This document shows, in pieces, positions 551 through 62,598 of a DNA stretch of 64,000 nucleotides (positions within the stretch are counted from its first letter, which is position 1; each line of letters begins with the position of its first letter). A program made the position numbers and the translations under genes. The stretch spans positions 41,937-105,936 of IMG/VR virus record IMGVR_UViG_3300021560_000014. One strand, written 5' to 3'. Source of the stretch: a virus. A model generated the notes under the pieces. That model searched no databases. It was not told where the DNA came from and worked only from the letters and a program-made list of their open reading frames with translations.

Positions 551-1228
551 ATGAAACACTTTGCCTGCGGTGCCGTTTCCTGCCCACCCAGATGTTCAGT
601 GAGCGCGGTGATTGTGCGCGCTAATGGCTACCGGGAGGACCTGGGCGAGATCGCCTTTTGGGACCCCAGCCTGCTGAAGCGGCTGCAATGGCGCTGGCGT
701 AAAGCCCGCTCGGGCGCGTTCTTCCTGGCGGCTGACCCGGTCGGCGGCCTCATTACCACGCTGGGTCCGCTCTTCCTGGCCGCGTTTCAGGTTACTGGGG
801 GCCGCGCGGTCGTCACGGGCCGTCTGCTCGGCACGACGCAGCCGTCACCACAGTACATGAGCTGGGGGACTGGGCCAGGTACAACCGGGCAGGGTGATAC
901 CACGCTCTTTGCCGAGACCTACTCGACCTTCAACAACGGCACCGGCAACCAGCGCATCATTGGGGTCATGACGCAGCAGAACATCTCCACGCCCAATGAC
1001 ACTGAGCAGGTGGTGGCGACGATTGCAGCGGCACAGGCGCAAAACGGCGTGGCCGGGCAGCTCAATGGCGCGATTGCCGAGGTCGGCCTGTTCGACAACA
1101 TCGGCACCTCGACCGCGCTCAGCGCCGCGCCCTCGGGCGGCAATATGTACTTCAAGGCTGACTTCGCGGCGGAGGTCCTGGCGCTTAACGATTCGATCAC
1201 CTTCACCTGCCAGGTGCAGTACACCTGA
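551..1228 (+). CDS. Putative virion structural protein (tail collar/fibre-attachment-like)
   Basis: ATG at 551 after GAGGAAC. WGTG...DTTLFAE...IAEVGLFD...GNMYF pattern seen in phage tail-associated proteins. Start uncertain. Confidence 0.55.
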   Translation: MKHFACGAVSCPPRCSVSAVIVRANGYREDLGEIAFWDPSLLKRLQWRWRKARSGAFFLAADPVGGLITTLGPLFLAAFQVTGGRAVVTGRLLGTTQPSPQYMSWGTGPGTTGQGDTTLFAETYSTFNNGTGNQRIIGVMTQQNISTPNDTEQVVATIAAAQAQNGVAGQLNGAIAEVGLFDNIGTSTALSAAPSGGNMYFKADFAAEVLALNDSITFTCQVQYT

Positions 1229-3078
1229 TGGCCAACTTCAACGTAACCGTTACCGCGCAAAGCGGGTCCAGCGCCAGTGTCAGCACCCAGGTGCAGCAGG
1301 TGCTTGGGCTTGTCGTCCAGGCCACGTCCGGCTCGCTGGCTGCGCTGCAAATGTACGTCACGCGCGCCCCGGCGTACAAAATCACGCCGCCGCTGGTCGA
1401 AGCCTATCTGCGCGGCTCGAAGGTGCGAGGGCCGCAAATTGTCGCCCAGCTGCAAGCCATCCTCCAGCTGGTGGCCTCCTCGCCGGTCAATCTCGCGCCG
1501 GTCGTGGGGCCGGTCGTGCTGCTTGAGCAGGCGGTCTGCAAGGTCATGAAGACCGTGGCGGCCTACATGATGAACGACCCCAATTATCCGCACCTGCCGC
1601 TCGCCATGCAGGACTCGATTGCGCAGGCGGCGGTCTCCTGGGCCGAGCTGTACGCGGTGACCGGCAATGTGGCCTTCTACGACAAGTTCCCCAACGTCAG
1701 CTCGCTGCTCACTACCTCGCCCTCGGCCCAGCTCTTCAGCGCCCAGGCGCGGGCCGTGGCCACGGCGGTCGATGTCAGGCTGGAGAGTTTCCTCAATGTC
1801 CCCATCCTGGCCGGGCTCACGGTGCAGACCTTCTGGTCAACCACGCAGGAGGCGGTGGAATCGCTCAGCCGCCTGCTGGTGATCGACTATGTCATCGGCA
1901 GTGACCCGACCATCTATTACGGTCCCAACGCCACGGTGCAGAACATCGTCGAGGACGCGCGGCGGGTGTTCCTGGGCATCGGGCCGCTGGTGCCGGACGT
2001 GCAGGCGGTGCTGACCCAGATCAGAGCGGCGGTGGCCTCTGGCTACGTCGATACTTCGGCCCTGACCATCACCTCGCTGCGGATGCCGTCCAATGCCAGT
2101 CTGCAACAGCTGGCCGCGCAAATCTACGGCAACCCCGATCTCTTCAAGCAGCTGGCGGATTTCAACGGGCTGGTCTATCCCTACGTCTCCGACGACCCGA
2201 TTGCCAAGCTCGGGCCGCCCAAGCAGCTTGGCGTGCGGCTGGCGGCTGACGTGGTGCAGGGCAGCAGCAGGTTCGCCATCACCAACGTCTCCAACTTCGC
2301 CCAGGACGACCGCCTGCTGTTTCAGTACGATGGCCACATACAGGTGGTCACCATCACGGGCATATGGGCGGTCGCGAGCCTGCCCTCGTGGGACGCCATC
2401 GGCGGCATCGACGAGCTGCCCGACATCGACACCGGGGCCGGGATTATCAACATCGGCAGCTTCGACTGGAACACGGTGCCGCCGCAATACTACGACCGCG
2501 AGGCGCTGAACTTCACCATCCAGGTCTCGCCGCCGACCGACATCGCCTACGCTGCGGCTAACACCGTGGTCACGCTCTATCCGTCCACTTATGACGGCGG
2601 CGTGGTGCTCGGGACCGGTGACACGCTGCTGGTGCCCAATGTGCTCGGGCAATCGACCGCGCTCATCATCGACAACAATTACACCGATGCCCAGCGGCTG
2701 GGGACCGACGCGGCGACCGATCAGGACGGCAATCTGAACATCGCCAACGGCGACCTCGCCACCGTGACCGGCGTGCCGAACCTCAAGCAGGCGCTCATCA
2801 ACCGCTTCAAGGTCGAGCGCGGCATGCTCATCCATCACCCGACCTATGGCACCGGCCTCAGGGGCTACCTCGGCAGGGTGATCGGGCCGGGGTCGGCCTT
2901 CCTGGTCACGGTCGATGCCACCCAGACTGCGCTGGCGGACCCGCGCGTTACCGGGCTCGCCCAAATTCAATCGCTGCTGATCGCCGATGCGGTCAACATT
3001 GAATTCAACGTCGCCTTGGCCAATGGAGTGCTGGCCTTTCCGACCAACCTGGAGCTGACCGTGCCGACGGGCGGGTGA
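1228..3078 (+). CDS. Baseplate wedge protein with C-terminal gp25/GPW-like domain
   Basis: C-terminal GDLATVTGVPNLKQALINRFKVERGMLIHHPTYGTGL...DPRV is gp25-like. Central LQQLAAQIYGNPDLFKQLADFNGL is LysM/tail-X-like. Confidence 0.7.
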   Translation: MANFNVTVTAQSGSSASVSTQVQQVLGLVVQATSGSLAALQMYVTRAPAYKITPPLVEAYLRGSKVRGPQIVAQLQAILQLVASSPVNLAPVVGPVVLLEQAVCKVMKTVAAYMMNDPNYPHLPLAMQDSIAQAAVSWAELYAVTGNVAFYDKFPNVSSLLTTSPSAQLFSAQARAVATAVDVRLESFLNVPILAGLTVQTFWSTTQEAVESLSRLLVIDYVIGSDPTIYYGPNATVQNIVEDARRVFLGIGPLVPDVQAVLTQIRAAVASGYVDTSALTITSLRMPSNASLQQLAAQIYGNPDLFKQLADFNGLVYPYVSDDPIAKLGPPKQLGVRLAADVVQGSSRFAITNVSNFAQDDRLLFQYDGHIQVVTITGIWAVASLPSWDAIGGIDELPDIDTGAGIINIGSFDWNTVPPQYYDREALNFTIQVSPPTDIAYAAANTVVTLYPSTYDGGVVLGTGDTLLVPNVLGQSTALIIDNNYTDAQRLGTDAATDQDGNLNIANGDLATVTGVPNLKQALINRFKVERGMLIHHPTYGTGLRGYLGRVIGPGSAFLVTVDATQTALADPRVTGLAQIQSLLIADAVNIEFNVALANGVLAFPTNLELTVPTGG

Positions 3079-3123
3079 TCACCTTCGTTGCGGCCCCGTT
3101 TCCTGCCCACACCAGAGAGGAAG

Positions 3124-4278
3124 ATGGCTTTTCAATTCAGGAGTTCGGCGACGATTACGGCGGAGATGATCGCGCGCATCACGGCGATGGCCCCGCAGAT
3201 TACGGACTATACCGAGGGTGGTATTGTCCGCTCGCTGGCCGAGACCGTGGCCGATGAGTTGCAACAGCTCGACGAGGCGGTTTATGCGGGCCTGCGCGAG
3301 GCGATCAACACGGCGGTCTACAAAGCCTTCAGCTTCAATCGCAAGCCTGCCTCCTATGCACTGGGGATCGAGCGCTTCGTGGCTATACCTGGCATCATCG
3401 TCCCGGTCACCATCCCGGTCGGTACTCCGGTGATGGTGCCTGGTTCGGCGATTCAGTACACGGTGACGCAGCAGGGCGTGATCAATCCCGCTCCGGCCCC
3501 GAATTTCATCGACCTGCCGATTATGGCCTCGGTGCCAGGGTCGATAGGCAACACTCCGGCCAACACCATCACGCTCCAGGGTGGAGTTTTCAATATCCAG
3601 CTGGTCAGCAATCTTCAACCAGTCGTCAGTGGCCAGGATCAGGAGTCCGATCAGCAGCGCTTCAACCGTTTTCAGAATTATATTGCAGGATTGACTCAAG
3701 CCACGCTGCCCGCGATCCGGGCGCTGGCGCTGTCCACCTCACTGACTGACGCCAACGGCAACATCTACGAGGGGGTGCAGAATGCGCTGGTGGAAGAGCC
3801 CTTCCTGGAGGGGCAAGCCTTCCTCGGCCATGTCCTGGTCTACATAGATAATGGGACTGGGAGTGCTTCACCGGCCCTGGTGGCGGCGGTGACTAACAAC
3901 CTGGCGGGTTATACTGACTCGCAGGGCGTTGAACACCTGGGGTCGATTGGCGCGGGGGTTGATTTTCAGGTGCTGCCGGTGACGCCGATGCTGCTGTCCC
4001 TCACGGTCGGCATTATCCTGCTGCCTGGAGCCGACCCGGTCGGCACTCCGCAGCTGGTGCAGACTGCGGTCATCAACTACCTCATGAGCCTGCGGGTGAA
4101 CGACGAGGCTGTGCTGAACCAGATCGACGCGGTGGTGATCGGTGTCGGCGGGATTCTCGATGATCAGCTGGCAACTCCGGATGGCATCGTGATGACCACG
4201 AACGTGATTCCGCCCAACGGTTACCGGATCACGCCGGGAGTCATCACTGTGGTCGTGGTGGGGAGCTTCGGGTCCTGA
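3124..4278 (+). CDS. Baseplate J-like protein
   Basis: ATG at 3124 after GAGAGGAAG. ITDYTEGGIVRSLAE, PGSIGNTPANTI and SGQDQESDQQRFNRF motifs typical of Baseplate_J. Confidence 0.9.
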   Translation: MAFQFRSSATITAEMIARITAMAPQITDYTEGGIVRSLAETVADELQQLDEAVYAGLREAINTAVYKAFSFNRKPASYALGIERFVAIPGIIVPVTIPVGTPVMVPGSAIQYTVTQQGVINPAPAPNFIDLPIMASVPGSIGNTPANTITLQGGVFNIQLVSNLQPVVSGQDQESDQQRFNRFQNYIAGLTQATLPAIRALALSTSLTDANGNIYEGVQNALVEEPFLEGQAFLGHVLVYIDNGTGSASPALVAAVTNNLAGYTDSQGVEHLGSIGAGVDFQVLPVTPMLLSLTVGIILLPGADPVGTPQLVQTAVINYLMSLRVNDEAVLNQIDAVVIGVGGILDDQLATPDGIVMTTNVIPPNGYRITPGVITVVVVGSFGS

Positions 4279-6242
4279 TGGCTTCGACACTGATCGGTAA
4301 CCAGCGCATGGTTGATGCCCTGATGGCAGCCAGGGTCAGGCCGGTCTCTGCCGCTCCGATGCTGGCCGCTCCGGTGGCAGCTGGCGGTTATGTGCCTCCT
4401 GCGGTGCTGCTGCGGCTGCTCGACCCGCGCCACCTGACTGACGCGCTCAACAAGGAGCCCTCCGGCGACGGCATGATGCTGCCGGTCAACGCCCTGCTCT
4501 CGATGCAGGGCTATGATCCGCTCACCAACATCGCAGCGGGGATTCAGCTCGTGTACACGGGCGACACTCTGGCAACAGTGACCGTGCGGCACTATCACCT
4601 CATTACCTCAACGGCGGCGGGATTCAACCTCTCACTCGACCTCTCGGTCATCCCTACCCTCTCAGCCCTGGTGGCGCAGATAAATGCCACCACTGGCTAT
4701 TCAGCTCAACTGGATGCCGGGGCCGACCCCAATGCCTCGCCGCTGCGCCTGATCGAGATGGACCGGCAGAACATCGGGACGCAGGCGCTCAGGATGTTCG
4801 TCTCGACCTCGGTGCTGTGGTCGATTATGAAGGCCGTCGCCTGGGCGATTGAGGATTCCTACGTCAACCTGGTCAACGGCCTGCTCGAACTCGAACCGGC
4901 CACGGCGGATGGCCGCTGGGTCGATGTCTGGGGCAGCACCTACGGCAACGTCATCAGGAACGCGGGCGAGTCCGACAATGTCTATTCGACCCGCATCATC
5001 AAGGAGGTCGTGCGCCAGCGGCTGACGGTCGCCGCGCTGGAGCTAATCCTGCCGCAGGACCTCGGCTTCCCTGCCGGGTCCGTGACCGTCTCCGGCAATC
5101 TTTACCCGCTAGTCTTCGTCGTTGGCCAGACCAAGGTCGGCAGCAAGATCCTGTGCGACCGGATTCACTGCCGGACGGTGTTCTTCGTCAATATCGACCA
5201 GGCAGTCACTGAGGCCATGACGCCTGCGCAGTGTCAGGCGTTCCCTGCGATACTCAATCGCAACCGCATGGCGGGCACACTGCCGGTCACTCCCTGGCTG
5301 CCATATGTGGTGTGGCCAGCGGGCTCCTATGTGGTCTATGGGGGTTACATTTTCCATGCCGCAGCTGATGCGCCAGCTGGCTTGAGTCCGATCTTCGACT
5401 CGGTCGGCGAGGCCAATAAGTGGGGCGTCTCCATCAACTTTGGCGATCTGACCAATATCGCGCCGCTGGTGCCTTATCCATGGTTCATCCTGACCCCGCT
5501 GCCAGTCGGGCCGATTACACCTCCGGGGCCTCCGGGGTTGCAGTTCACCGCCCCGGTAATCAGTACGGCCAGCGTGAGCATGACCGTCACGACGGCCCCG
5601 ATACCTTACAACACAGTCGTGCTCAATGACGGTCCTGCCGCCTTCTGGCCTTTGGATGATGGAGCTGGTTCGAGTTCGACGCGGGAACTCGTCGGCAATG
5701 TAACCGGGACACCGACCAACATCACCTTCGGCGCAGCTGGCGCGACCAGCGACGGCGCTACAGCTGCATCATTCGATGGGGCGACGAGTCAGATCACGAT
5801 CCCCAACCTGTGGGGAGGCAATCAATTTCCTCTGCTGCCGATCACTGTCGAGTTCTTCGTCAAAGGCTCGACGACGAGTCCAATCGGCATTTTTGACACC
5901 TTCCCCTCTAGCGCTGGTATGCGCAACTACCCGGCAGGTCAGTACGGCTATGTCAGCTATGCCACCTATAACCTCGGCCTGCCGGACACCAACTGGCATC
6001 ACGTCGCTTTCGTCATGTACTACACGACGCAGCGGATGCTTGATTATTACCTCGACGGTGTGCTCGTCCGCTCGACTTCCGACACTTCAGGCAACAACTA
6101 CACGGGCTTCGGCACGCCGGGCATGCTCGGCAACATCAACACTGGCGGCGCGGGCTGGTTTGCGGGCTCGCTGGCAAAGGTGGCGATTTACAACAAGCAG
6201 CTGACTGCGACGCAGATCGCGAATCACTACGCGCGCAGATGA
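4278..6242 (+). CDS. Baseplate wedge protein with C-terminal LamG/concanavalin-like domain
   Basis: ATADGRWVDVWG..YGNVIRNAGESD..Y..RII motif directly after BpJ. C-terminal AFWPLDD...WHHVAFV...YLDG...FAGSLAKVAIYNKQLTATQI is LamG-like. Confidence 0.75.
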   Translation: MASTLIGNQRMVDALMAARVRPVSAAPMLAAPVAAGGYVPPAVLLRLLDPRHLTDALNKEPSGDGMMLPVNALLSMQGYDPLTNIAAGIQLVYTGDTLATVTVRHYHLITSTAAGFNLSLDLSVIPTLSALVAQINATTGYSAQLDAGADPNASPLRLIEMDRQNIGTQALRMFVSTSVLWSIMKAVAWAIEDSYVNLVNGLLELEPATADGRWVDVWGSTYGNVIRNAGESDNVYSTRIIKEVVRQRLTVAALELILPQDLGFPAGSVTVSGNLYPLVFVVGQTKVGSKILCDRIHCRTVFFVNIDQAVTEAMTPAQCQAFPAILNRNRMAGTLPVTPWLPYVVWPAGSYVVYGGYIFHAAADAPAGLSPIFDSVGEANKWGVSINFGDLTNIAPLVPYPWFILTPLPVGPITPPGPPGLQFTAPVISTASVSMTVTTAPIPYNTVVLNDGPAAFWPLDDGAGSSSTRELVGNVTGTPTNITFGAAGATSDGATAASFDGATSQITIPNLWGGNQFPLLPITVEFFVKGSTTSPIGIFDTFPSSAGMRNYPAGQYGYVSYATYNLGLPDTNWHHVAFVMYYTTQRMLDYYLDGVLVRSTSDTSGNNYTGFGTPGMLGNINTGGAGWFAGSLAKVAIYNKQLTATQIANHYARR

Positions 6243-6267
6243 GATTGGGTTGGGTTGAGGGTCCTCT

Positions 6268-9200
6268 ATGAAGAAACTAATCGCGCTCCTTTTCATGCTC
6301 GTGGCCACGCTCGCGTGGGCGCAGACTGAGACTCCTCAGCCGTACAAACCCATCCCGAATTACACCGGAGTGGGGGCCGGGCAGAAGCTGCTCGATGATA
6401 TAAACGGCAAGCTCGCAGGCCCGGATGTCGTCCAGCCCGCGCTGGTCAAGCTCTATTTCGCCCATCTGCCAGCTGAGAAAAACGGCCAGATGTACTATGT
6501 GATCGACGGCATGCCGGGCAGCAGCCCGTGCACTGGGGGAGGGGGTGGTGCAATCGCGACTGGCATAAGTGGCCAGTGGTCCTGCAGTGGGGGAGGGGGA
6601 GGTGGTGGTGCGATGCCGGTCCCCTGCATTGGGAACATCCCGCTCGTCAGTGGGGTCGGGGCTTATACTGCCAGCTGTGTGGGCACTGCCAGCTATTGCT
6701 CTTGCCGCGATACGACCAATCCCGCATTCACCTGCTATACTGGCAACCCTGTCACGGGCAGCGTCGCGGTCACTGGCAACGGCAATGACAACGCCCAGGT
6801 CATGTGTTCGACCACCTCGCCGACGTACCCGAGCGTCACCAACTACGTCGGCCCGGTGAACATAGCTGGCAACTCGGCCAATGGTACGGATGTTATCTCG
6901 GGCGTCAACGGCGTCTTACCCAACGCGCTGAACATGCAGGCGTTTGGCTATAAGACCGATGCGCGCAGTGACATTACGTGTGCTATCAATAACCTCGGCG
7001 GCAGTCCGGGGACCGTTACTGGCTGCACCGTGCTGGCCCTTACCTCCGCTGACGTTGGCCATCCGTTTCGGGCAGTCTGGCCAGGCTCGCCTTATGGCGC
7101 GAACGTCTCTGGTAGCGGTACTGGTAACCTCACGCCGTGTATTGCCTCAGTCACCGACGTGGCAAGTTTTGTCTATGGTGTGATCACTCACTGGACGCCT
7201 TCCTCCGTGATCGCGACTGGCAAGACCATCGAGGACTCCAATGGGAACACTGAGACAGCCACTACAGGAGGCACTACGGGAACCTCCAAGTGGGGACCAA
7301 CCTGGCCTGTCACGCAGGGGACGACTACCACTGACGGGTCAGTGTTGTGGACGTTGACCTCCCTGGGCTCGACTGGGGCTTGTCAGCAGGCGCCCTACCC
7401 CGGTACGTCGCAGACTGGCGTTTACGTGCAGACTGGCACTGACGACTTGTGGCCCATAATGCGCGCCGTGTTGTCGGTCGGGCCTGTGGGCAGTAACGCA
7501 GTCTATCCCATAAAGCTCTTTTTCAGCAGTGGTGTAGGCATGATAACTGACACCATTGAGCTGCGAGGGCGCAGTGGCGAGATCGGTGGCATCGGGTCGT
7601 TCCAGAGTTCGGCGCTGGCGACGCTGGTGTGGGATGGCCCGCGTGGGCATCCGGCCATGCGGGTGCATGGTGATACTGGGCTGTGGGTCCATGACTTTTA
7701 CTTCATTCCCAACAGCAGCTCCAACAACCGATGGTCAGCCTGCGTTGACACGTTGCAGGACACACAGCTGAACGCGTTCGACCGAATCGAGCGCATCAAC
7801 TGCAATCCCGACTATGGCCCTCAGCCGGACTGGGGGTATGTCAACAACCTGCCGACACTCAAGTATGGCACCTATGGCCTGGAGTTCGACCCTGACAGTA
7901 CAGGGCAGAACGACCGCCTGCAGATCAACCAGCTGAGCACTGGGCGCGATGAGACCTGCTTCTTCGTTGGACAGCAGCAGATCGATACCGACGTAATCAT
8001 GGATAGCACCTGCACGGCGGGGAGCAATACCTGCTTCGTGGACGATGCCGGAGGCCAAATCACCTTCCGCGATAATTCCTGTCTAGGCAATGGGTTGAGC
8101 TACTCCTTCGGTGGCGGTGTCAGGGTGTTCATTGACATGCCGACTTATCAGGCCGGTCCCGCGTGGCAAGGCGAGCAGATACCGTTCAGCCTGCAGCTGC
8201 TCCGTTTTGACAGTGGAGCTACGGTCGGTATGAATGGTCAGGCACCCGTGTCCGGCTCGCACACGCCGGATAATGGCGTCACAATCGACACCGCAGGCAG
8301 AGGCATTCTCCCGGTTTATCCTGGCAACAGCGCTACGGTGGTGGCCAATCAGGTTGTTCAGCTGGCACCTAACTGGCCTGACTGGGAGCCTTCCCTGGGC
8401 GCTGCCCTGCCGAGCTTCGAGGCGTGGTGGCCGTCGAGTCCGTTCGGCAGCCGGACCATCATCCTGCCAGTGAACAATAACCCCAACTTGGATTACTTCA
8501 TCGTCAATCCGATCCCTTCCTCCGCCAGCCCCATCGGCATCACCGGCCTGACTGAGCCGAATTGGAACAGCATCTGTCCGACCATCGGCATGAATTGTAC
8601 TGACTCACAGACTGGCCATGCGGGTATCACATGGACCAACTACGGGCCGATTCCACCGCAGTACGTTGTAGTCCCCAGCGTCGGCAACCCTGGACGCTTC
8701 GCCTTTCTGCTTACTGGCAGTGGGACGACTGGAACTGCTCCGCCCATATGGCCGCAGGCGGTGGGGTCACCAATCGTCGATGGGACAGCCAATTGGCTCA
8801 ACATCGGCGTGCTGCCGACCAATCCCGGCCTGTTCGCCTTCCGTGCCTCGGCGGCCTGTACTACTGGCTCGACTCCGCCCACAGCGTTCTCTCAGGCGCT
8901 CAATGGCACTACGTCTGATGGCGGCTGCTCTTGGGTCACTACTTACGGCGGAGTGTTTACCAATGGTATCTGGCAAGGCACGAACGCCACGACCACGAAC
9001 GTGCTGGATATGGCAAATGCCGGTATCGCTCAGGGTAGTGGAGGGACTGGCGACGCGGCCTCGGTGGCCGAGACCTATATCGACATGACACCGATCAACG
9101 GCAACTCCAGCCTGCCTCACACTGCCCTTTATGCTGGGTCGCAGTACGGCTTTGGCAAGCCCGGCGTCCTGCGCATCCGTACTGGTCTGGACAACAGCGG

Positions 9201-10344
9201 CACGAGCAACCGGCAGAACCAGATCATCTACCGGCGCGGCACTTATGGCGCATCGGCGGCAGGAGAGGTCACGGAGGAGACGATACCAGGGAATAGTCAG
9301 GTCTTTCAGACTTACCGCAGAGACTTGAATGGTAAGGTCAACGTAAACGGCGGCCCGCTCGCGCTCAATCAGTTGCCTGCTCCTACTACTCCGGCATCGG
9401 GCACCTGCATGGTCCCGGCCTGGGTTGCCAGCACTCCAGTCTTCAACCGCTGGGTGATAAAGCCGACAGCTGGCAACGCTGGTGCCTACTTCTTTCAGAA
9501 CCAGACCGGGGCGACGTTCACTACTGGCACGACTCAACCGGCCACCTGGAATCAGACCGTTGGCGGCACGACATCGGACAATGGCAATCTCTGGACGAAC
9601 GTGGGCAGCGGTGCGTCTGGAAGTCCCGGCGTTGGGGCTGCGGGGCTATATCGTGTCAAGACTACCTGGCGCGCTGGGACTGGCGCGCTGCCGGGGGAGA
9701 CGACTGCGAGCCCTGAGGCGACTGTCGCCTGTGGCCCGACTGACTCCCAGGTTCCGTCTGCCACGACTGGTGTCCCGACCACCTATGGGGTCGCGATCAC
9801 CTTCACCAATTATGTCGTGCAGGGGCCTGACTCAATTGGAGTCTACGCCACCACTGGTGCCGCGAACGCGGAAGCACTCAGCGTGATCACGCCGCTCGAT
9901 ACCTTCGGGGGCAATGGCAATACCGGGGGCTCGTTCAACCTGCCGGTCGCCCGTATAGTGCCGCCGCCGTGGGTGGTCAGTACGGTCCATGCAATCAACG
10001 ATGTCATGAAGCCTGTAAACAACAATGCGGGCGGTTTCACTTATGTAGAGGTCAATCCGTACTGCCGTTCGAGCACCACCACGGAGCCGACCTGGTCGCA
10101 GGTTATTGCCGCTGCCACTACAGATGGCGAATGCTCGTGGGTCAATATCGGGCTGGGTACGCCGCCGACAGTCAACTCGACTACACCGCTGCAATGGGGC
10201 ATCCCGGACGTTGCGCTCGGGGGCGGCGCGGCTCCGACGTTGGGCACGATTGGCGGCAGCGGCCCGGCTACGGCTGCACAGAATTCATGGCTTCAGCTGA
10301 AGGACTCAACTGGCGCGAACGTCTGGGTACCGATCTGGAAGTGA
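6268..10344 (+). CDS. Large fibre/tailspike-like protein (1358 aa) with N-terminal signal peptide
   Basis: MKKLIALLFMLVATLAWA-Q signal peptide; G/T/S/N/C-rich; beta-helix-like central region; repeated P.W....G.T..DG...W modules; located after the baseplate genes. Confidence 0.6.
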   Translation: MKKLIALLFMLVATLAWAQTETPQPYKPIPNYTGVGAGQKLLDDINGKLAGPDVVQPALVKLYFAHLPAEKNGQMYYVIDGMPGSSPCTGGGGGAIATGISGQWSCSGGGGGGGAMPVPCIGNIPLVSGVGAYTASCVGTASYCSCRDTTNPAFTCYTGNPVTGSVAVTGNGNDNAQVMCSTTSPTYPSVTNYVGPVNIAGNSANGTDVISGVNGVLPNALNMQAFGYKTDARSDITCAINNLGGSPGTVTGCTVLALTSADVGHPFRAVWPGSPYGANVSGSGTGNLTPCIASVTDVASFVYGVITHWTPSSVIATGKTIEDSNGNTETATTGGTTGTSKWGPTWPVTQGTTTTDGSVLWTLTSLGSTGACQQAPYPGTSQTGVYVQTGTDDLWPIMRAVLSVGPVGSNAVYPIKLFFSSGVGMITDTIELRGRSGEIGGIGSFQSSALATLVWDGPRGHPAMRVHGDTGLWVHDFYFIPNSSSNNRWSACVDTLQDTQLNAFDRIERINCNPDYGPQPDWGYVNNLPTLKYGTYGLEFDPDSTGQNDRLQINQLSTGRDETCFFVGQQQIDTDVIMDSTCTAGSNTCFVDDAGGQITFRDNSCLGNGLSYSFGGGVRVFIDMPTYQAGPAWQGEQIPFSLQLLRFDSGATVGMNGQAPVSGSHTPDNGVTIDTAGRGILPVYPGNSATVVANQVVQLAPNWPDWEPSLGAALPSFEAWWPSSPFGSRTIILPVNNNPNLDYFIVNPIPSSASPIGITGLTEPNWNSICPTIGMNCTDSQTGHAGITWTNYGPIPPQYVVVPSVGNPGRFAFLLTGSGTTGTAPPIWPQAVGSPIVDGTANWLNIGVLPTNPGLFAFRASAACTTGSTPPTAFSQALNGTTSDGGCSWVTTYGGVFTNGIWQGTNATTTNVLDMANAGIAQGSGGTGDAASVAETYIDMTPINGNSSLPHTALYAGSQYGFGKPGVLRIRTGLDNSGTSNRQNQIIYRRGTYGASAAGEVTEETIPGNSQVFQTYRRDLNGKVNVNGGPLALNQLPAPTTPASGTCMVPAWVASTPVFNRWVIKPTAGNAGAYFFQNQTGATFTTGTTQPATWNQTVGGTTSDNGNLWTNVGSGASGSPGVGAAGLYRVKTTWRAGTGALPGETTASPEATVACGPTDSQVPSATTGVPTTYGVAITFTNYVVQGPDSIGVYATTGAANAEALSVITPLDTFGGNGNTGGSFNLPVARIVPPPWVVSTVHAINDVMKPVNNNAGGFTYVEVNPYCRSSTTTEPTWSQVIAAATTDGECSWVNIGLGTPPTVNSTTPLQWGIPDVALGGGAAPTLGTIGGSGPATAAQNSWLQLKDSTGANVWVPIWK

Positions 10345-10360
10345 GCGGGAGGGGAAGGTC

Positions 10361-12181
10361 ATGAGATACCTTGCGGCGATACTAGTCACGATCTGCGTTC
10401 TGCTAAACCCTCACCCAGTCAGGGCTGAGATCGGCGGTGGTGCGGGCATCGGCAATTTCACCGGAGCGGTCGGAGTCACTGGCAACTCGGGCAATGGCAG
10501 CGATCACATCAACAAGGTCTGCCGCGATGGCGTTTGTCCGGTGACCGCGTTTGGGGCAGTCGGCAATGGCACTGCGGATGACACCGCAGCGGTGCAGGCA
10601 ACCTACAATGCGTGCGCCTCGGGCCAGCGGGTCTACTTCCCGCGTGGGAATTACAAGATCACTTCCCAGGTGACGATCCCAACTGCTGCGGGCACTGGCG
10701 TCTGTCCGACGGTCGGCGATGACTGGACCGGCCTGGTGACTGGCTATGGCCAGACCCCCAATGTGCAAGGCTCGGTGATCAACTGTGCCATGACCTCGGG
10801 GACCTGCCTCGATTATGAGCCCCCTGGCGGCTACGGAGCGCCGCTGGTCTTTCGCGGCATCGTGTTCACGGGGCCTGGTACTGGCACGGCGACCTGCTTC
10901 CAGGACGGTAACTCCACTGGCGCGGCGTCGGATAATTTCGGGAAGAAGGAACACGTCGGCTTCGTCAACTGCGCGGTCGGCTACGCCTTCAATGGCGAGG
11001 ACAACGAGCTTGACCATCTGGTGTTCTGGGGCAACAACGTCGGCATGCTGTGGGCGCAGACCACCGCGAATGAGAATACGCTGCCCGCGCTGGAGCTGAA
11101 CGGCAATAACACCGGGATGTCAGTCACCGCGACCAACTACGGCAACCGGATTTTAGGCGGCCTGATACAGTCCAATGGCACTGGCATCTCCATGACCATG
11201 GCCTCCTTCGCGGTGTCGTGGGACATCCGCATCAATGACATGGAGTCCAATACCAACCACGGGATGCAGCTGAAGCTGAAGGACAGCATCGTCAACGTGG
11301 TCCATGGAGGCGTATCGAACTGCAGCACGAACCCCTGCACTGGGGACACGGTCGAGTTCACGGGGACCTTCTCCACGGTGCTGGAGGAGTCGCTGCTGTC
11401 TCAGGGTGCGCTGCAATGCACCGGCTCCCAGCTCCTGATGATCGCGAACTACACCCAGGGGATAGTCAACTCCGGCTGTAACCTCCAGAACTGGGGTGAC
11501 TTTGGCATTCCGGGGCTGAACTTCAGGAACGGTACCGGGAACGTGGTCCCGCCCTGGTACGCGAGCGGCCTCGAACTCTCAAACCTGAGTGCTTCAGCTA
11601 CCAATGCGGTTCGGGCGTTTGGCTCCACTACCGTCTCCGGCGAGTTGGACACGGTGAACGCAGGCGGCGGTCCTGTCGGGGTCTCATACAACGGCAGCTG
11701 TGGCCACGTAGTGATTCAACCGGGCACCTTTACCGCGACCTTTACCGTCCCCACCCCTCAGGCGGCCTGCAATAACACGACCAGCTGTACCCTCAAGGAC
11801 GACGGCGCTACCAACCTGGTGAACACTGGTGCTGGTCAGTCCTGGCTCTCCACTGGCTATGTCGCTTATGGCCAAATCTCGGGGGCCTGTTCCTGGTACG
11901 TGGCGACTGGGCTGCCGATCAATACTGGGTCGAACGCCGCAACCATTGGTTACAGCTGGGGCTCAGCCGGGAACATCATTGGGCAGAGTGGATCGAATGT
12001 GCAGCTGGGCAATTCGACCACCTTCCTCCAGCCGATGAATCCGCTGACCGCCCTGGGCGGCGGCGCTGCGCCGACCCTCGGCACAATCGGTGGCACTGGT
12101 CCGGCGACCGCCGCGCAGAATACGTGGCTGAAGATGACGGATTCCACTGGGGCGAGCTTCTTTCTGCCCGCGTGGAAGTGA
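10361..12181 (+). CDS. Pectate-lyase-like beta-helix tailspike-like protein with signal peptide
   Basis: VTAFGAVGNGTADDTAAVQA...VYFPRGNYKIT is a Pectate_lyase_3-type start; MRYLAAILVTICVLLNPHPVRA signal peptide; C-terminus shared with the upstream gene. Confidence 0.7.
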   Translation: MRYLAAILVTICVLLNPHPVRAEIGGGAGIGNFTGAVGVTGNSGNGSDHINKVCRDGVCPVTAFGAVGNGTADDTAAVQATYNACASGQRVYFPRGNYKITSQVTIPTAAGTGVCPTVGDDWTGLVTGYGQTPNVQGSVINCAMTSGTCLDYEPPGGYGAPLVFRGIVFTGPGTGTATCFQDGNSTGAASDNFGKKEHVGFVNCAVGYAFNGEDNELDHLVFWGNNVGMLWAQTTANENTLPALELNGNNTGMSVTATNYGNRILGGLIQSNGTGISMTMASFAVSWDIRINDMESNTNHGMQLKLKDSIVNVVHGGVSNCSTNPCTGDTVEFTGTFSTVLEESLLSQGALQCTGSQLLMIANYTQGIVNSGCNLQNWGDFGIPGLNFRNGTGNVVPPWYASGLELSNLSASATNAVRAFGSTTVSGELDTVNAGGGPVGVSYNGSCGHVVIQPGTFTATFTVPTPQAACNNTTSCTLKDDGATNLVNTGAGQSWLSTGYVAYGQISGACSWYVATGLPINTGSNAATIGYSWGSAGNIIGQSGSNVQLGNSTTFLQPMNPLTALGGGAAPTLGTIGGTGPATAAQNTWLKMTDSTGASFFLPAWK

Positions 12182-12192
12182 GGAGGGGTCTA

Positions 12193-15100
12193 ATGATTAA
12201 GCGGCTGATAATCGCGGCGGTGCTCCTGCTGTCATTCCATGTGCCAGCTCATGCGCAGTACCAGAACATCCCGAATTACGGCAACAACTGCACCATCCTG
12301 CCCGACCAGCCGGGCAATGCAGGCTATTGTTTTCGCTCCGACGTGAACGGCAACGGCTCGGGCGCGCGGGCGACCTCGCCGCAGCTGGTGCATCTGTATG
12401 CCAATCAGCTGCCAGCGACGGTGGTCAACGGCCAGATGTACTACATCAATGACGGCACGGTCGGCTCGCCCTGCACAGGTGGCGGCACTGGTGCAATCGC
12501 GCAGGGCATCAATGGCGTATGGGTCTGCACCGGATCTGCAGCACCTCCTGTACCGCCGAGCCTGGTCTCGACCACGGTCTGGAATCCCTGGCAAACCTCG
12601 AAGGCGGAGCGGATCGGGACGGGCACCGGCTCGGCTGGACCGTACAACCTTACGCTCGCGCATACTGCGGTGATTGGGGGCCTGGGGGCCGCACAGCCTG
12701 TCACCTTGTATGTCAACGGCGTGGCGCAGGGCACGGACTATTGGGGAGCTGGCCAGATCACGGGCTCGGGCATCTCCGGTACCTCCTGTGGCATTGACTA
12801 CGAGCTGGGGACGCTGAACAACTGCACGTTCACAGCCGTAGTCGGCTCCGGCGTGGCCATAACCATAAGCTATACCTACGCGATGCCGCCCTCGACGCAG
12901 ATCGCCGGGTATGTCGGACAGATGCAGGGCCTTTCCAACGTCACCGCGTGGGGTGCAGTGGGTAGCGGCAACGGCATCGGATGCACCGCGACAGCTGGCA
13001 GCGCGGTGCTGCCGTGTAGCGGAGCGATACCCGCCAACCTCGTGACCAACCGCTACGTCGAGGTCGTCGGGGGCGGCTCGAATGCCGCCTGGAACCCCTG
13101 GGGCACTTACACACCGCCTGCGCCGAACACGGCGGCAATCGTTGCGGGTAGCCAGACCATCACGCTGACAACGTCGGAAGTCGTGCCGAAGGGCGAGCCC
13201 ATCACGATTGCTGGCAATGGCATTGTGGGCGGACCTCTTACCACCTTCACTACAGGCAACTGCAACCCCTGTACTTCGCTCACGATTAACGCACCGCCGC
13301 AGGGCGCGAATGGCACCTATGCCGTGACCTTTGGCCCGACTGTCTCGCCCAAGACGTGGACACGCGTCCCCATTACCTTCCCGCAGTTCTTTGCCCCGAT
13401 CAACACTGCCCAGGGCGCGGGCAACGACTACGGCTCCTATGAGGGATGCACTATCGACGCGGCGGCGAGTCTGCCTGCATTTCAGAATAATCATGCCTAT
13501 GCCGCTGGTGATGTGGTCGGCGCGGCGATCTCGATCACTGACCGTGCAGGACAAAGCAACCCAGCAACGGGTATTTATTATGTGCCAGCCAATGGAGCTG
13601 GTACCTCGGCGACGAGCGGCGCACCGACCTGGCCCACCGTATGGGGCAACGCTGTCCTGACTGGTACAGCGCACCTTTCCCTGGTGGGCCTGGCCGCACC
13701 TTCAACCAATAACACGGCGAACACCGGCTGTGCTCAGGTCTACGGCTATCGCTTCTACCCGGTCGATCATCTCGGGCGTATCGGCACGCCGAGCCCGATC
13801 TACTACACCACCCATCAGCCGGTCATGAATTCGGACGGGCCAGCGGTATTCGGCACTGACAACCGTATCCTCCTCCAGTGGACCGACCCGCCTGACCCCA
13901 TGCTCTACGCCAACATCATCACGCGCTGCAAAGGCTCCGGCTGTACGCCGACGACGACCATCCACGCAATTGTGCCCACGCGCTTCGATAACCTGACCAA
14001 CTGGCTGTGGGACATGACCAACTACGACACGGGCACGAGGGTCGATCCATCGGGGACGCGTCAGATAACCGTCCCGGCGACGCTGCCATCGCCGCAAAAC
14101 GTCAATGGCGTCTATATCGTCACGCAGTCGGGCACCTCGCTGACGCTCTCCGCGCCAATGACGACCTCCGGCCCGGTCTATGTCATGTCGGATGACTGGC
14201 CCGCCGCGCAGGCAGCAGTCCGTTATGGCTGCGCGGTCGAGCGGATCAAGAGCGCGGGCAATCCCTCGGTTTACTTTCCGGCCAGTGCTGGCTGGCTCCT
14301 GGGGCAGCCGCTGCAAATGATTGGCTGCAATGGCCCCCACGTCTATGGCGCGGGCGGCGCGATGGGGACCGGCTCGGGCGCGACGACCATCAACTATATC
14401 GGGCCTCCGGGTGGCGTGGCACTGGATGTCGATATGGCGCGCGACGGTGAATATGACCACATGAACCTGTCGAACAACAGCGGCAACAATGCTGATGTGT
14501 CGCTGCCCGGTTTCTGGATCGATGACGACCGCTATGGCTATTCGGGTGTCACGAACACCGCCAACAATTATCACGACATGAGCTTTGGCGCGGCAGGCGA
14601 TCACGTCATCGACATTTCGCGGGCCAACCCTACGGGTAACGTCGAGAACCACCTGTTCACCAACCTGGAGATGCACTGCCGCTTCGGCCTGACCACCCAG
14701 GGCATGGGCTGGAGCGAGAGCGCCATCAGCATCAACAGCTACCTCTCAGCAGCTGGACAGACCAATCTGGAGAAATTCAAGAATGTGTTCCCGACCTGCT
14801 CCTCAATTGGCTGGGCGTCGTACTTTTCCGGTGAAATCGAAATCGACAACCTGAACGGCTGGGGGAACTCATCGAGCCTCACTCCGCCCAATGGCGTCCC
14901 GTTCATCTTCCTGCTCGGCTCGGCCAAGCAGTTCCTGATAAAGGGCGCATATGACGAGAATGGCGGCAAGCTCGCGGAGATCTACGGGGTCGTGAACATG
15001 CTGTTCCGTATTCAGGACTCCGACTGGATCGGCAACGCGGTGACGCAGCCTGACAGCTCCTTTCCCATCATGATTACCGGCACTGGTAGGGGAGATGGCG

Positions 15101-15678
15101 GCTTCCTCGACCTTGACCACATTGAACTGAACCACACACTGGGCACGCCGATTTATCCGAATTTCGTCTGGGCGAATCTGGTAGGCAGCGCCACCCTCGG
15201 CCAGCCAGTCGGTGCCAGCTACCACAGCTTTTACGCCAACTCGGACCCGTTCGCCTCAGCCCTCATGCCCGCCGTTGGGCAAAACACGGTGCAGGAGCTG
15301 GCCGATGTCGGCAACCTGAGCGTCGCCAATGGCGGCTGGGCATTCGTCTTCGCCAACGCGATGGCAGGCCATTACAACTGCATCGGGCTCGGGCCTCCGG
15401 CGCTTTCAACCGGGGCGCTCAGCATCACGCCGACCTCGACCGACGCCTGCGGCAAGTTCACCGTGGTGAGCACCAATCCGACCACCTCGGCGACCATCAC
15501 GTTTGCCCTACCCTACGGCACGCAGCCGCATTGTTCCTGTTCGGAGGACATCGGCGACGCGACCCAGCAGTTCATCGCCTGCGGCGGGAATGCCGCTGGC
15601 ACCCAGCTGATCGCCAAGGTGCCGACCGACTTCCACAGCGCCAACATCCACTATAGCTGCCAGAGCAATGGCAACTGA
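12193..15678 (+). CDS. Large fibre/tailspike-like protein with signal peptide
   Basis: ATG at 12193 after AGGAGG. MIKRLIIAAVLLLSFHVPAHA-Q signal peptide; NVTAWGAVGSG and DDWPAAQAA...VYFPA beta-helix motifs; N-terminal module shared with the 6268 gene. Confidence 0.6.
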   Translation: MIKRLIIAAVLLLSFHVPAHAQYQNIPNYGNNCTILPDQPGNAGYCFRSDVNGNGSGARATSPQLVHLYANQLPATVVNGQMYYINDGTVGSPCTGGGTGAIAQGINGVWVCTGSAAPPVPPSLVSTTVWNPWQTSKAERIGTGTGSAGPYNLTLAHTAVIGGLGAAQPVTLYVNGVAQGTDYWGAGQITGSGISGTSCGIDYELGTLNNCTFTAVVGSGVAITISYTYAMPPSTQIAGYVGQMQGLSNVTAWGAVGSGNGIGCTATAGSAVLPCSGAIPANLVTNRYVEVVGGGSNAAWNPWGTYTPPAPNTAAIVAGSQTITLTTSEVVPKGEPITIAGNGIVGGPLTTFTTGNCNPCTSLTINAPPQGANGTYAVTFGPTVSPKTWTRVPITFPQFFAPINTAQGAGNDYGSYEGCTIDAAASLPAFQNNHAYAAGDVVGAAISITDRAGQSNPATGIYYVPANGAGTSATSGAPTWPTVWGNAVLTGTAHLSLVGLAAPSTNNTANTGCAQVYGYRFYPVDHLGRIGTPSPIYYTTHQPVMNSDGPAVFGTDNRILLQWTDPPDPMLYANIITRCKGSGCTPTTTIHAIVPTRFDNLTNWLWDMTNYDTGTRVDPSGTRQITVPATLPSPQNVNGVYIVTQSGTSLTLSAPMTTSGPVYVMSDDWPAAQAAVRYGCAVERIKSAGNPSVYFPASAGWLLGQPLQMIGCNGPHVYGAGGAMGTGSGATTINYIGPPGGVALDVDMARDGEYDHMNLSNNSGNNADVSLPGFWIDDDRYGYSGVTNTANNYHDMSFGAAGDHVIDISRANPTGNVENHLFTNLEMHCRFGLTTQGMGWSESAISINSYLSAAGQTNLEKFKNVFPTCSSIGWASYFSGEIEIDNLNGWGNSSSLTPPNGVPFIFLLGSAKQFLIKGAYDENGGKLAEIYGVVNMLFRIQDSDWIGNAVTQPDSSFPIMITGTGRGDGGFLDLDHIELNHTLGTPIYPNFVWANLVGSATLGQPVGASYHSFYANSDPFASALMPAVGQNTVQELADVGNLSVANGGWAFVFANAMAGHYNCIGLGPPALSTGALSITPTSTDACGKFTVVSTNPTTSATITFALPYGTQPHCSCSEDIGDATQQFIACGGNAAGTQLIAKVPTDFHSANIHYSCQSNGN

Positions 15679-15690
15679 GGAGGAGAGCCC

Positions 15691-15900: not shown

Positions 15901-15901
15901 G

Positions 15902-15979: not shown

Positions 15980-15995
15980 ACGTAGAGGTTAATCA

Positions 15996-59133: not shown

Positions 59134-59820
59134 CTATAATTCCTTCACGCCCTTGGGGGTGGCCACATGCCGGTGCGGATGATGATGCCGTTGTGGCTGT
59201 GGCTGGGCCGTCCGTGGTTCAGCCAACACCTTGCTGCATTGATCGGCAGTGGCGCTGACGAAGCCGGACGCCAGATAATGGGTGGCGTCAAACATCGCCA
59301 GGGTCTGTTCAGCTGAATCTCCGGCACTCTCCCTGGTCCAGGGGGTCTCCGCTAAGCGCTGCAGGTCTTTGGCCAGCGCATAAAATAACTCGGTGCTCTC
59401 CGGCGTGCAGATGGCTTTGAGCCGCCCTGCGACGTAATTCGACAGCACGGCTGCCGCGCCCGCCATCTCAGGGTCGGTACGCCGCGTGGTGGTGCTGTAG
59501 GAATCCAGCACGTTGCAGATGGTGTCAATCACCTGGTCGTGGTTCATGGCGGTTATCGTGTTGATTGCCTGCGCCCGCGCCTCTGGTGACACTGTCACCT
59601 CCTCATTGGGGTCGGGCGGTGCAGGCGTGGCCTCGGGTGTGGGTTGCGGTGCTGGTTGTCGCGCCGCCATATCAGCTTCAACCTGACTGGCGATTTCCTG
59701 CGCGGTCGGAATGTGCGGCAGATACACCGGTTGCGGTGGTGGCTGGCTGGAGCAGCCCGCGAGCAGCAGCGCGCCAGCGGTTGCTTGACGCCATAGGCGT
59801 CGGCGCGGTAGTCTCTTCAT
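59134..59820 (-). CDS. Lipoprotein
   Basis: MKRLPRRRLWRQATAGALLLAGC: Arg-rich n-region and LAGC lipobox, then a Pro-rich linker. Confidence 0.75.
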   Translation of the reverse strand: MKRLPRRRLWRQATAGALLLAGCSSQPPPQPVYLPHIPTAQEIASQVEADMAARQPAPQPTPEATPAPPDPNEEVTVSPEARAQAINTITAMNHDQVIDTICNVLDSYSTTTRRTDPEMAGAAAVLSNYVAGRLKAICTPESTELFYALAKDLQRLAETPWTRESAGDSAEQTLAMFDATHYLASGFVSATADQCSKVLAEPRTAQPQPQRHHHPHRHVATPKGVKEL

Positions 59821-60676
59821 GGTCGTAAACCTCGTTCCGGGTTGATGCGCGCCAGGGTCTAGCCACTCTGGCGCGCGCACTCATTAGATGCCCTCCATCC
59901 CGATATAGCCGTCGATCCTCCTGGCAGCCTGCGCGTGTACATCACACATCAGCTCGTGTACACGCGCCTCCCTATAGGCGAAATGCACGATCCAGCGTGC
60001 GGCCTTGCCGCAGCGACAGTGCAGCAGTCTGCGCCCTGCAAGCCACTTGCGCGCGTTCATCGCGAGACGCCCCACAGCTTGCGCTCGCGTGCGTTCAGAT
60101 AGTTGCGCCCGAAATGCCGGGCCGCCTGGGGGTGTCGGCTCCAGTCAGGGGCAAAGCCGCCCTTCTGTAGCCACCCGCGCAGCGCCTGACAGCTCTCGCG
60201 CACCTTCGCCGTGTCCTGGCTCACAATGCCAGCTGCAATGTTGGCTAATGCAATATCAGGGTCCATCTATTTGTCCTCCGGGGTGCGGGTGATGGCCTGG
60301 CCCAGCTGCTGGTAGCGCGCCCGTGTAGTCTTAATCCGTTTGGCAATGAACGCTTCGCGCTCAGCTTCACTCTTAAACAACTGGCGCGGCTGACTGGCGC
60401 CGTAAGACCGGCCATTGCGGGTGACTTGGCAGTTGACGGCCCAGTAGGTCACGTCCAGCTCGAAGCCCTCGGGCACGATGTACCAGCAGCCGATCCTGCC
60501 GCTCTCGCCCGCCTGGGGAGGGTTGCGGTAAGTCACGCGGTAGCGGCTGACGCGCAGGCCGATGGCGCGGCCTTTCTCGTCCAGCAGTCCCAGGTCAACC
60601 TGGCTGCTGTCGCGTCCGCTGTCGATGCAATCCTTGCAGTATCGTTGAGTGTCCATTAGCGTTACCTCCATCGCCC

Positions 60677-60718
60677 ACTATCCGCTTTTGCCAGCTGCAT
60701 GTCAATACAGCTGGCAAA
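60677..60718 (-). promoter_or_regulatory. Sigma70 promoter with inverted operators
   Basis: TTGACA-tgcagctggcaaaagcg-GATAGT; TTTGCCAGCTG inverted repeat around the -35. Confidence 0.75.
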
Positions 60719-62598
60719 TATTATTTGCGGGCGGTGCGCTTGATGCAGCCGCAGCCGACCAGCTCCATCTGCTGAAAGGTCAGCTCGCGCTGGTGGTCGG
60801 CCAGCGTGGCCATCACCGCGTGATTGATCTGTCGCTGGTAGTAGCCCGCCTTCACGACCAGCACCAGGTTCAGCAGCAGCACGACGAGAAGGACGATTTG
60901 CATTTTCATTTGCGTCCCAAATATGCCCGCACCAGTTCCATGGCCGGGCCATCGAATACCGATGCCAGCACCACCTTGCCGCCACTGTGGACGGTGCGCC
61001 GTGGGTCACTCCAACGTACCGCCGTCGGATAGGGGCTCGAATACTCGTGGTCCTCCGCGCCGTAGCGCAGGCAGACCTTCTGCACCCCTTCTGCGGGGTC
61101 GTGATATAGATACACATCCACCAGCAGGCCGCTGGTGGGGCTTACCGTGGTCCCCACAAAGCCGCCGTCGCCGAGGTGGCCGCAGCGGTCGGGATAGTGC
61201 GGTTCTTTCATTTGCTCTCCTCGAATTTGAGATACTGTCCGCGCTCGTCCTCGGCGTGGCTCAGATAGCCCTTGACCCGCTTGCCCTTCACCACGCGATA
61301 GCCGGGAATGGTCCAAAACGTATCCGAGATGCCCGCGTGGACGAGGCGCAACTCCCCGTCACACATGGCCAACGCCCTGCGGGTCATGCCGCCAGCTGGA
61401 TAGGCAAACTCCTCGCCCTCGATCCAGGTGCCGGAGCCGCACTCGACATTGACGATTTCAGCGCCCATATAGCGCCCGTGCCGTGGCTTTGCTGGTTTCA
61501 TCGGCTCAGCTCCTCCGACCATTTGAGACTCTTCAAATCCTCAGGCGTGGCCACGGTCAGCGCCTGCAACAGCTGTTTGCGGATGGCCCACAGCTCCGCC
61601 TTGGCCTTTAACCATGGCTCCTCGGGCAGATGCGGCAGCCCGCCCAGGGTGTGAGCAGCGACATCGACGCCGTCGAGCAGCACCAGGATATTGCGCGCGG
61701 CAGCTGTCAGCCCCACGCTCGCAGACGAGCCACAATCTCGATCCCGCTGCGCCTGCCACTGCGCACTGGTCACCCAGCGCTCACTGTAGCCGCCGTCCTT
61801 GTAATAGGTGACGATGATGTTCGGGTGCAGGGTGCTGGCCTTGACCTCGGTCACCTTGCGCGGCTTGGCCGGACGGTCGGTGATGCTCGCCTCATAATCC
61901 GGGCCATATGCCGCTTCCAGCTGCGTGGCCAGATACGCCTTGCGCAGCTCCCCAATGAATTCATCCACGCCAAAGCCGTGCTGGTCAGCATATTTCTGGG
62001 CATTCCTCGACGCCTCCAGCACTGCGTCGCCAGGGTTGCCCACGGCCTCCAGTTCGGTCGCGACCGCGAGTTTCACCGCCTGCTCCAGCGTAATCTCCGT
62101 CTGCGCCTCAATCGCTCGCTCATACGCCTCAATCGACGGTACGGCCTGGGCGATGGCTTCATGCTCAGCCTGCCTGACGCTTGCCGTTTCCTGCCCACCC
62201 TGACGCGCCCGCTGGGCCAGGATTGCGCCGACTGACGCGCTGCCCTGGCCGAATGCCTTACCTTCACTGACGCTTGCCGTTTCCTGCCCACCCTGGCGCG
62301 CCCGCTGAGCTTTCTTCTGCTCCTCGATCAGCCACGTGATATGGCCATAGTTCTTCTGAAGGTGTGGCACCCCGTACCCCTTGATGCCGTAGACAATCCC
62401 ATCCGCCTTGCGGACCATGTACATACCGGACCAGCTATCCGGGCCATTGTCCTGGTCGATGCAGATCCATTTCTGACGCTCTTTCACGCGTTTGGTGCAG
62501 CTGTAGCCGCAGCGCCCGCGCTCAGCAATCGCGTTGGCCTGCCACAGCCGGGCAAATTCCTCGCATTGCTCATATAGGTTGCTCATGACTCCCTCCTG

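Follow-up and report, generated by a model that had tools for sequence, protein, structure and literature searches.

We analysed a 64,000-nucleotide stretch of viral DNA (hereafter, the window) that forms the last 64 kb, positions 41,937 to 105,936, of the 105,936-bp IMG/VR contig IMGVR_UViG_3300021560_000014, and focused on a short asymmetric element, the 15-mer CCGTTTCCTGCCCAC, that recurs along it. The contig, whose completeness is 76% according to CheckV, belongs to an uncultured soil phage, a large myovirus encoding baseplate wedge proteins, a T4-type TerL, a portal and a head protease. The closest TerL, at 59% identity, is found on a 25-kb contig, and the nearest isolate is an acidobacterial phage (TerL identity 40%). 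The genome consists of two convergent arms: a left arm (contig 1-60 kb) of rightward genes for packaging and structure, and a right arm (contig 60-106 kb) of leftward genes for replication and accessory functions. Among the encoded proteins are a family A DNA polymerase fused to a uracil-DNA glycosylase (UDG), RecD2 and UvrD helicases, a PD-(D/E)XK nuclease, Dam, a class II ribonucleotide reductase (RNR), a ParB_N-DUF4417 protein, a SAM lyase and an FtsK alpha-beta motor. The FtsK, ParB and RecD2 genes had already been recognised in an initial annotation made from the sequence alone, and all three are real.

An exact search located 24 copies of the 15-mer in the window, 18 on the plus strand and 6 on the minus strand, at the places and in the orientations that the initial annotation had reported. 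The expected count was zero (100 shuffles of the window), and a search allowing up to three mismatches detected no window copy with one to three mismatches. Across the whole contig we counted 39 exact copies, divided 31 to 8 by strand, and a profile search of the contig with nhmmer added a single diverged copy at contig 6267-6302. A 22-mer search of 241 million metagenome records yielded one match, a 2.8-kb metagenome contig with three further copies (L253, positions 1-2814, Ga0126371_10105611). Since L253 overlaps the start of the viral contig by exactly 10 nt, and the RNR reading frame continues across the overlap and completes the RNR gene, it is the adjoining 2.8 kb of the same phage rather than a relative. 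The element is thus present in 42 exact copies in ~108.7 kb, 34 of them on one strand.

A host or otherwise generic repeat, the outcome that the initial annotation had named as fatal to its proposal, does not account for these copies: among the matches listed from 2.9 million viral contigs and 32 million GTDB genome contigs, there were only chance-level single copies. Megablast, peptide words from the polymerase and from TasA, and an examination of 80 TerL-related loci recovered no relatives, and the 11 matches to the 16-mer half-site all fell in unrelated coding contexts. In one distantly TerL-related IMG/VR phage (GC content 45%), four copies of CCATGCAAGGGGG lie within 1.7 kb (L174:6391-8063), and these may represent a junction motif of its own.

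The conserved unit extends beyond 15 bp. On the other strand it reads gGK-GTGGGCAGGAAACGG-(GGCCGCA/CACCGCA/CAAGCGT)-N3-6-aGGtG: the core is followed by a tail, which is GGCCGCA in the majority of copies and CACCGCA or CAAGCGT in the rest, and then, after 3-6 nt, by a purine-rich AGGTG resembling a Shine-Dalgarno (SD) sequence. From here on, the strand given for a copy is the one on which GTGGGC.. reads, and w denotes a window coordinate. The core showed 0 changes in 585 positions, whereas eight tail positions were 28% non-consensus; at the tail's level of divergence, an unchanged core would have had a probability of ~1e-83. Nucleotide-level selection therefore acts on each copy, including those that are antisense or lie within protein-coding sequence, as the initial annotation had proposed. 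Neither orientation of the element folds significantly (z = -1.45 and +0.48), and scans of the window for Rfam families and tRNAs were negative, on which grounds a structured RNA was rejected. Because it has no intrinsic fold, we consider the element to be read as linear sequence. Overall, it is real, strongly selected and phage-specific, and of a known kind, the dispersed phage control motif.

According to our gene calls, the 39 contig copies comprise 23 intergenic ones and 16 within called open reading frames (ORFs). A right-arm copy typically has an upstream stop codon 1-4 nt ahead of GTGGGC, and from the core it is mostly 13-25 nt to the next start. This preference for gene junctions had been noted before, as had intragenic copies in the frames PRFLPT, GGQET and AVSCPP, and both observations held. 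The commonest in-frame reading is a further one, APFPAH, which accounts for half (eight) of the 16 intragenic copies; four of these eight are in the RNR gene. There, the linker preceding the TSCPD domain holds an insertion of ~37 residues that is built of element repeats read as APFPAH (contig 1-2010, L170) and is absent from 13 aligned homologues, and the fourth RNR copy sits in a second hypervariable linker. The initial annotation had also described the long gene bodies as free of the motif. This was true of w3111-15902, but a 1772-aa gene elsewhere on the contig does contain one copy.

In the right arm, many window copies precede genes in the sense direction, all on the minus strand. The copy at w19328..19342 has an ATG 21 nt downstream, ahead of a Dam methylase block, and that at w23387..23401 lies 25 nt upstream of the start of the UDG-PolA DNA polymerase (w20839-23361, minus strand), in which an N-terminal domain of the uracil-DNA glycosylase superfamily is fused to a family A polymerase. 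Four copies precede small genes, at distances of 20 nt (w23672..23686, 79-aa gene), 17 nt (w31998..32012, 75-aa gene, the copy itself lying 2 nt past a stop codon), 13 nt (w48843..48857, 104-aa gene) and 17 nt (w49750..49764, 132-aa gene). The copy at w42440..42454 overlaps the end of a 136-aa gene, w56086..56100 lies 1 nt past a stop codon, and w55881..55895 stands at the start of a 103-aa gene whose operon ends in a TIGR guide array (w55271-55011). Two sense copies are in frame within a 362-aa gene, at w62184..62198 (read as GGQETAS) and at w62277..62291, its 93-nt tandem duplicate; the protein (w61498-62586, minus strand) carries a 31-residue tandem duplication with the element in frame in each unit (ARQGGQETASV).

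Other window copies face local genes. On the minus strand, w573..587 is antisense and intergenic between two plus-strand virion genes, w3096..3110 is antisense and lies between a baseplate gene (17 nt past its stop) and a baseplate wedge gene (13 nt ahead of its ATG), w37265..37279 is antisense and in frame (APFPAH) in the ParB_N-DUF4417 gene, and w38546..38560 is antisense just beyond the ParB gene. An extended similarity between the copies at w3096 and w38546, pointed out earlier, was confirmed, with one indel. The plus-strand copies at w27971..27985 (intergenic between minus-strand genes) and w32459..32473 (in frame, PRFLPT, in an 82-aa gene) are also antisense, and w18022..18036, on the plus strand at the convergence of the two arms, points into the ends of minus-strand genes. 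A sense copy at w15903..15917 (plus strand, 2 nt past a stop codon) and an antisense copy at w15964..15978 (minus strand, 17 nt before the start of a 672-aa gene) are the left and right arms of a face-to-face pair with a spacing of 61 bp, which folds into a stem of 16 bp. The element also occurs as one triple tandem, with a spacing of 39-45 bp.

Several of these features bear on the possibility that the element is a selfish or templated mini-cassette, consisting of a stop codon, the core and the SD-like tail, that was copied into tolerated spots, possibly by the process that spreads TIGR arrays. Such copying would fit the copies within the RNR linker insertion that homologues lack, the tail subfamilies that are common to distant copies, and the SD-like tail that even antisense copies retain, although they cannot use it. 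However, tails that have diverged by 28% per site around an unchanged core indicate selection on each copy rather than recent spread. We scanned ~75 proteins of the 108.7 kb, including every called protein of at least 400 aa, against Pfam or PHROGs, and this set contained no transposase, recombinase, HUH or HNH gene; the copies also have no target-site duplications, and most are solitary and do not form inverted ends. We accordingly give this explanation little credence. A miniature inverted-repeat transposable element or insertion sequence-type element, which would have terminal inverted repeats, a target-site duplication and a transposase, does not match these observations.

Examining orientation revealed that the copies do not follow transcription. 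Relative to local transcription, 20 of the 42 are sense and 22 antisense, in line with an earlier remark that orientation does not strictly track the genes. In contrast, the split by physical strand is 34:8 (p = 7e-5), or 24:7 when clusters are collapsed (p = 0.003). Since the arms converge, the relation to transcription differs between them: intergenic copies are 13:2 sense to antisense in the right arm and 5:11 in the left (Fisher p = 0.003). GC skew at third codon positions (GC3 skew) tracks the coding strand in both arms and displays no asymmetry of the replication type; there is hence no replication asymmetry for the motif to track, and a replication-linked strand bias as the source of its orientation is unsupported.

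The physical-strand polarity speaks for an explanation in which a phage protein other than an RNA polymerase docks on double-stranded DNA at the element, a polar site present wherever the 23-bp word is tolerated. The protein could be a stoperator-like, orientation-dependent roadblock repressor, or a DNA motor of the phage FtsK type for which the element acts as a guide signal. The conservation of the core in all copies, intragenic ones included, suits either version. The FtsK-orienting polar sequence (KOPS) and the SpoIIIE recognition sequence (SRS) are polar 8-bp words, frequent inside genes, that are read by the gamma domain of FtsK/SpoIIIE. The element resembles them in being a G-rich polar word with a strong physical-strand bias in a genome that encodes an FtsK motor, and its core contains GGGCAGGA, which equals KOPS at 7 of 8 positions. 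It differs in that the conserved unit is an invariant 15-23 bp. The 34:8 skew itself is real, but no replication-type asymmetry appeared in GC3 skew.

The candidate user of such a site, a 392-aa FtsK/SpoIIIE protein (w29687..30865, minus strand), aligns to the alpha-beta motor through residue ~349 (2IUU, E 4e-67) and ends in ~40 residues forming a Pro-rich linker and then a Trp-rich helix. It gave no match to the Ftsk_gamma domain. The FtsK loading site suggested by the initial annotation therefore finds a genuine motor without the domain that reads KOPS. This protein, encoded by a myovirus, also has no membrane anchor. A parS-like site, suggested at the same time, fares no better: the element is not a palindrome, and the sole ParB-fold protein, the ParB_N-DUF4417 protein, is a phage-enriched fusion, distinct from ParB proteins that bear a helix-turn-helix (HTH), and does not have the HTH that reads parS. 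Other candidate readers are an XRE-type 231-aa protein and a double-HTH 272-aa protein, both weak leads only. As for the roadblock version, a polar roadblock would work in one arm only, yet the copies of the other arm are equally invariant. Taken together, we consider a docking site rather unlikely, though the likeliest of the rivals.

The opposite relation to transcription in the two arms also raises an explanation at the RNA level. Because the arms are transcribed convergently and the element keeps one physical orientation, right-arm mRNAs would carry GUGGGCAGGAAACGG beside their ribosome sites and left-arm mRNAs its exact complement. As an RNA pairing tag, the element would let transcripts of the two arms pair, or form a hairpin where both forms are on one RNA, and so be cut or silenced. 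Mutual base pairing among many partners would require strict invariance, and the stem formed by the face-to-face pair would be in keeping with such a hairpin. However, the eight copies in the minority orientation are not systematically partnered; we regard this explanation as improbable.

The link between the element and TIGR guide arrays emerged as an addition to the initial annotation, as did the physical-strand polarity of the copies across the whole genome and the in-frame APFPAH copies. Using the repeats GCGYGAGCC and GCGRRRCCC, which alternate along TIGR arrays, we mapped 17 array segments. Of the 39 copies on the contig, seven are located within 150 bp of an array, compared to 2.4 expected at random, and five arrays start directly after an element. 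On the minus strand, the sense copy at w31518..31532 has the tail GGCCGCAGTGAAG, which runs straight into a 5'-truncated first edge repeat (...GAAG-GTGAGCC) of the array at w31470-31300, and the diverged copy is fused to its array in the same manner. The sense copy at w47065..47079, also on the minus strand and 1 nt past a stop codon, leads an array-tasA-array operon composed of an array at w47026-46686, a putative TasA gene at w46684-45650 and a second array; the TasA assignment rests on a weak match to TaTasR 9MTY (E = 6e-4). The remaining two, both sense and on the plus strand within a divergent region, are w34822..34836, which leads a 1.5-unit mini-array, and w34924..34938, which leads a 14-unit array (w34976-35473) with a canonical intrinsic terminator at w35525-35541. 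The mini-array occupies w34837-34923 between these two tandem copies, and its first unit, GCGTAGCCC-ATTGGTTGA-GCGYGAGCC, is identical to the first unit of the 14-unit array that follows.

Overall, in 6 of 6 unambiguous cases, on either strand, it is the tail of the element that faces the array. The docking-site explanation leaves both this arrangement and the minority-strand copies at the starts of plus-strand units unexplained, and the pairing tag does not account for copies that head arrays or occupy divergent regions. A tail-side position would, on the other hand, be in keeping with the mini-cassette. It is also the basis, together with the mini-array between tandem copies, for viewing the element as a landing pad or seed at which TIGR arrays are born and from which they are dispersed, with solitary copies as empty or spent pads; we find this view very doubtful. 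At the ends of arrays, the TIGR papers report truncated edge repeats and terminators, but they mention neither a leader nor a promoter, and the emergence and expansion of the arrays were called an enigma by their discoverers (PMC12045711). The phage's own TIGR guides do not target the element, since in 87 parsed units no adjacent 9+9 nt spacer A/B pair matches it; two single-half matches, each with one mismatch and from different units, are at chance level.

Further evidence comes from the two large divergent regions, contig 9054-9498 and contig 76653-76911. Each holds two copies, which face the unit transcribed in the minority direction, an isolated beta-helix gene in the first region and the array/HTH/ParB block in the second. 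Because such a unit runs against its arm, it needs a promoter of its own.

Our tentative interpretation is that the element is a phage-specific, promoter-type signal, the antisense copies of which make anti-late RNAs; we think this quite possible, though short of probable. Several lines of evidence lead to it, among them the unchanged core beside a variable tail; the right-arm intergenic copies, 13 of 15 of which are sense and located between an upstream stop and the next start; the five arrays that begin right after an element, one of them ending in a canonical terminator; and the copies in both divergent regions, facing a unit that needs its own promoter. The predicted promoter would span ~23 bp, with ~16 conserved bases ending in an A-rich GAAAC, followed by an invariant GG as the transcription start, and would fire in the GTGGGC-> direction, recognised by one highly specific phage-directed factor. 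Transcripts would begin GGGGCCGCA or GGCACCGCA, and the initial transcribed stretch would be semi-conserved (GGCCGCA or CACCGCA, 6-8 nt) and would lead into the SD-like AGGTG.

In the replication and accessory arm, the element heads genes such as that of the DNA polymerase, as well as the five TIGR guide arrays, and it lies within operons begun by ordinary sigma70-type promoters, where it would act much as middle promoters do. T4 middle promoters lie inside operons started by other promoters. The sigma70-type promoters of this phage (TTGACA-N17-ATAAT-like, with CAGCTGGCA palindromes on both sides) are a class of their own, which argues that the element is not a host promoter. We located them on the minus strand at w~31241, 45399, 50187, 51747, 53408, 57630, 60697 and 63446, with the sequence TTGACA-N17-ATAATC/ATAGTG/CATAAT. 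Their -35 box is bracketed by inverted repeats, TTTGCCAGCTG...CAGCTGGCAAA, that look like an operator palindrome; the same repeats also form strong hairpins at some array ends. Three small genes at w~51690, 57580 and 59030 share a near-identical 5' region, GGAGGCAACGCTGATGAACACTCC, and are apparent paralogues behind sigma70-type promoters. A sigma54 or ECF-sigma spacing for the element was dropped, as we infer from inspection by eye that the start would then fall beyond the SD.

In the structural arm, where most copies face the genes, the predicted promoter would yield antisense RNAs, and these would keep late genes repressed in the early phase of infection. There is precedent for this in phage PAK_P3, in which 15 of 20 antisense RNAs map to the structural region, nearly all of them inside genes, and are made early (PMC4933390). 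The predicted outcome in the left arm, many antisense units located mostly within structural genes, resembles that of PAK_P3. The difference is that in PAK_P3 the RNAs were observed and the portion of the study consulted reports no shared invariant promoter word, whereas here the word is observed and the RNAs are predicted.

The promoter interpretation faces several objections. The protein scan yielded no phage RNA polymerase or sigma factor, and no ORF, the large virion proteins included, contains an Asp triad, which dismisses an RNA polymerase hidden in those proteins; since the contig is 76% complete, the absence of an RNA polymerase from the phage is unproven. More than half of the copies (22 of 42) are antisense, among them four inside the RNR gene and three just upstream of it. 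The face-to-face pair and the triple tandem are odd arrangements for promoters. Three left-arm arrays carry the element at their 3' end, directed back into the array. The HTH proteins of the phage lacked an informative structural match in a sequence comparison with the PDB. Finally, the search for relatives gave none with which the sites could be compared.

We further compared the element with known families of dispersed phage motifs. In its conservation profile, from -3 to +22, it resembles the promoters of T7-type single-subunit RNA polymerases, which, as is generally known, are ~23 bp long, near-identical, asymmetric and A/T-rich before a G-start (PMC11880802), and it would pass for one in shape, given the start site proposed above. 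Like the element, these promoters are also found between or inside upstream genes without terminators. They are, however, co-oriented with genes and served by a phage-encoded polymerase, whereas half of the element copies are antisense and no polymerase was found.

The initial annotation had likened the motif to mycobacteriophage stoperators and start-associated sequences (SAS), and the resemblance holds up to a point. Stoperators of Cluster A mycobacteriophages (bound by L5 gp71 or the TipsytheTRex repressor) are likewise asymmetric, phage-specific, absent from host genomes and present in more than 20 copies in short intergenic spaces (PMC9283540), much like the 42 non-palindromic copies found here mostly at gene junctions. 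Stoperators are nonetheless degenerate 13-mers, as opposed to an invariant 15-mer with a tail, and they keep one orientation to transcription, being non-functional when reversed (PMC9283540). No homologue of the two-domain stoperator repressor was recognised among the HTH proteins present, which gave no PDB sequence match and weak atlas leads only. SAS and extended SAS (ESAS) of Cluster K mycobacteriophages are asymmetric repeats upstream of non-structural gene starts, with an SD nearby and sometimes the upstream stop inside (PMC3203893). The right-arm copies resemble SAS in position. Yet SAS lie 3-7 bp from the start, in a single orientation and in the non-structural half only (PMC3203893), unlike the element, which is mostly 13-25 nt from the start and occurs on both strands, in both arms, within genes and before arrays. 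As it has no single orientation to transcription (20:22 overall, and 13:2 against 5:11 between arms), the element belongs to neither family.

We also consider it highly unlikely that the element is an SAS/ESAS-type translation-start element for the gene that follows. The SD-like AGGTG in the tail and the right-arm copies just upstream of start codons would agree with such a role, but about half of the copies have no downstream start, five lead non-coding arrays, and copies are also found in the structural arm and on both strands.

The motif is unusually constrained, exact in 42 of 42 copies, antisense and coding ones included, with one physical strand favoured across convergent arms, and it is fused to the starts of TIGR arrays, for which a promoter, a leader and an expansion mechanism lack description. 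If it serves as a promoter, as we tentatively propose, it would show how the phage expresses ~17 scattered guide arrays along with the genes for replication, and it would reveal a built-in antisense programme against late genes that depends on a single signal. If it is a docking site, it would represent a new polar lattice spanning the genome, and if the landing-pad view were true, it would be the first clue at the level of sequence to the emergence and expansion of TIGR arrays. Whether promoter or docking site, the element offers a 23-bp bait for the protein that would read it.

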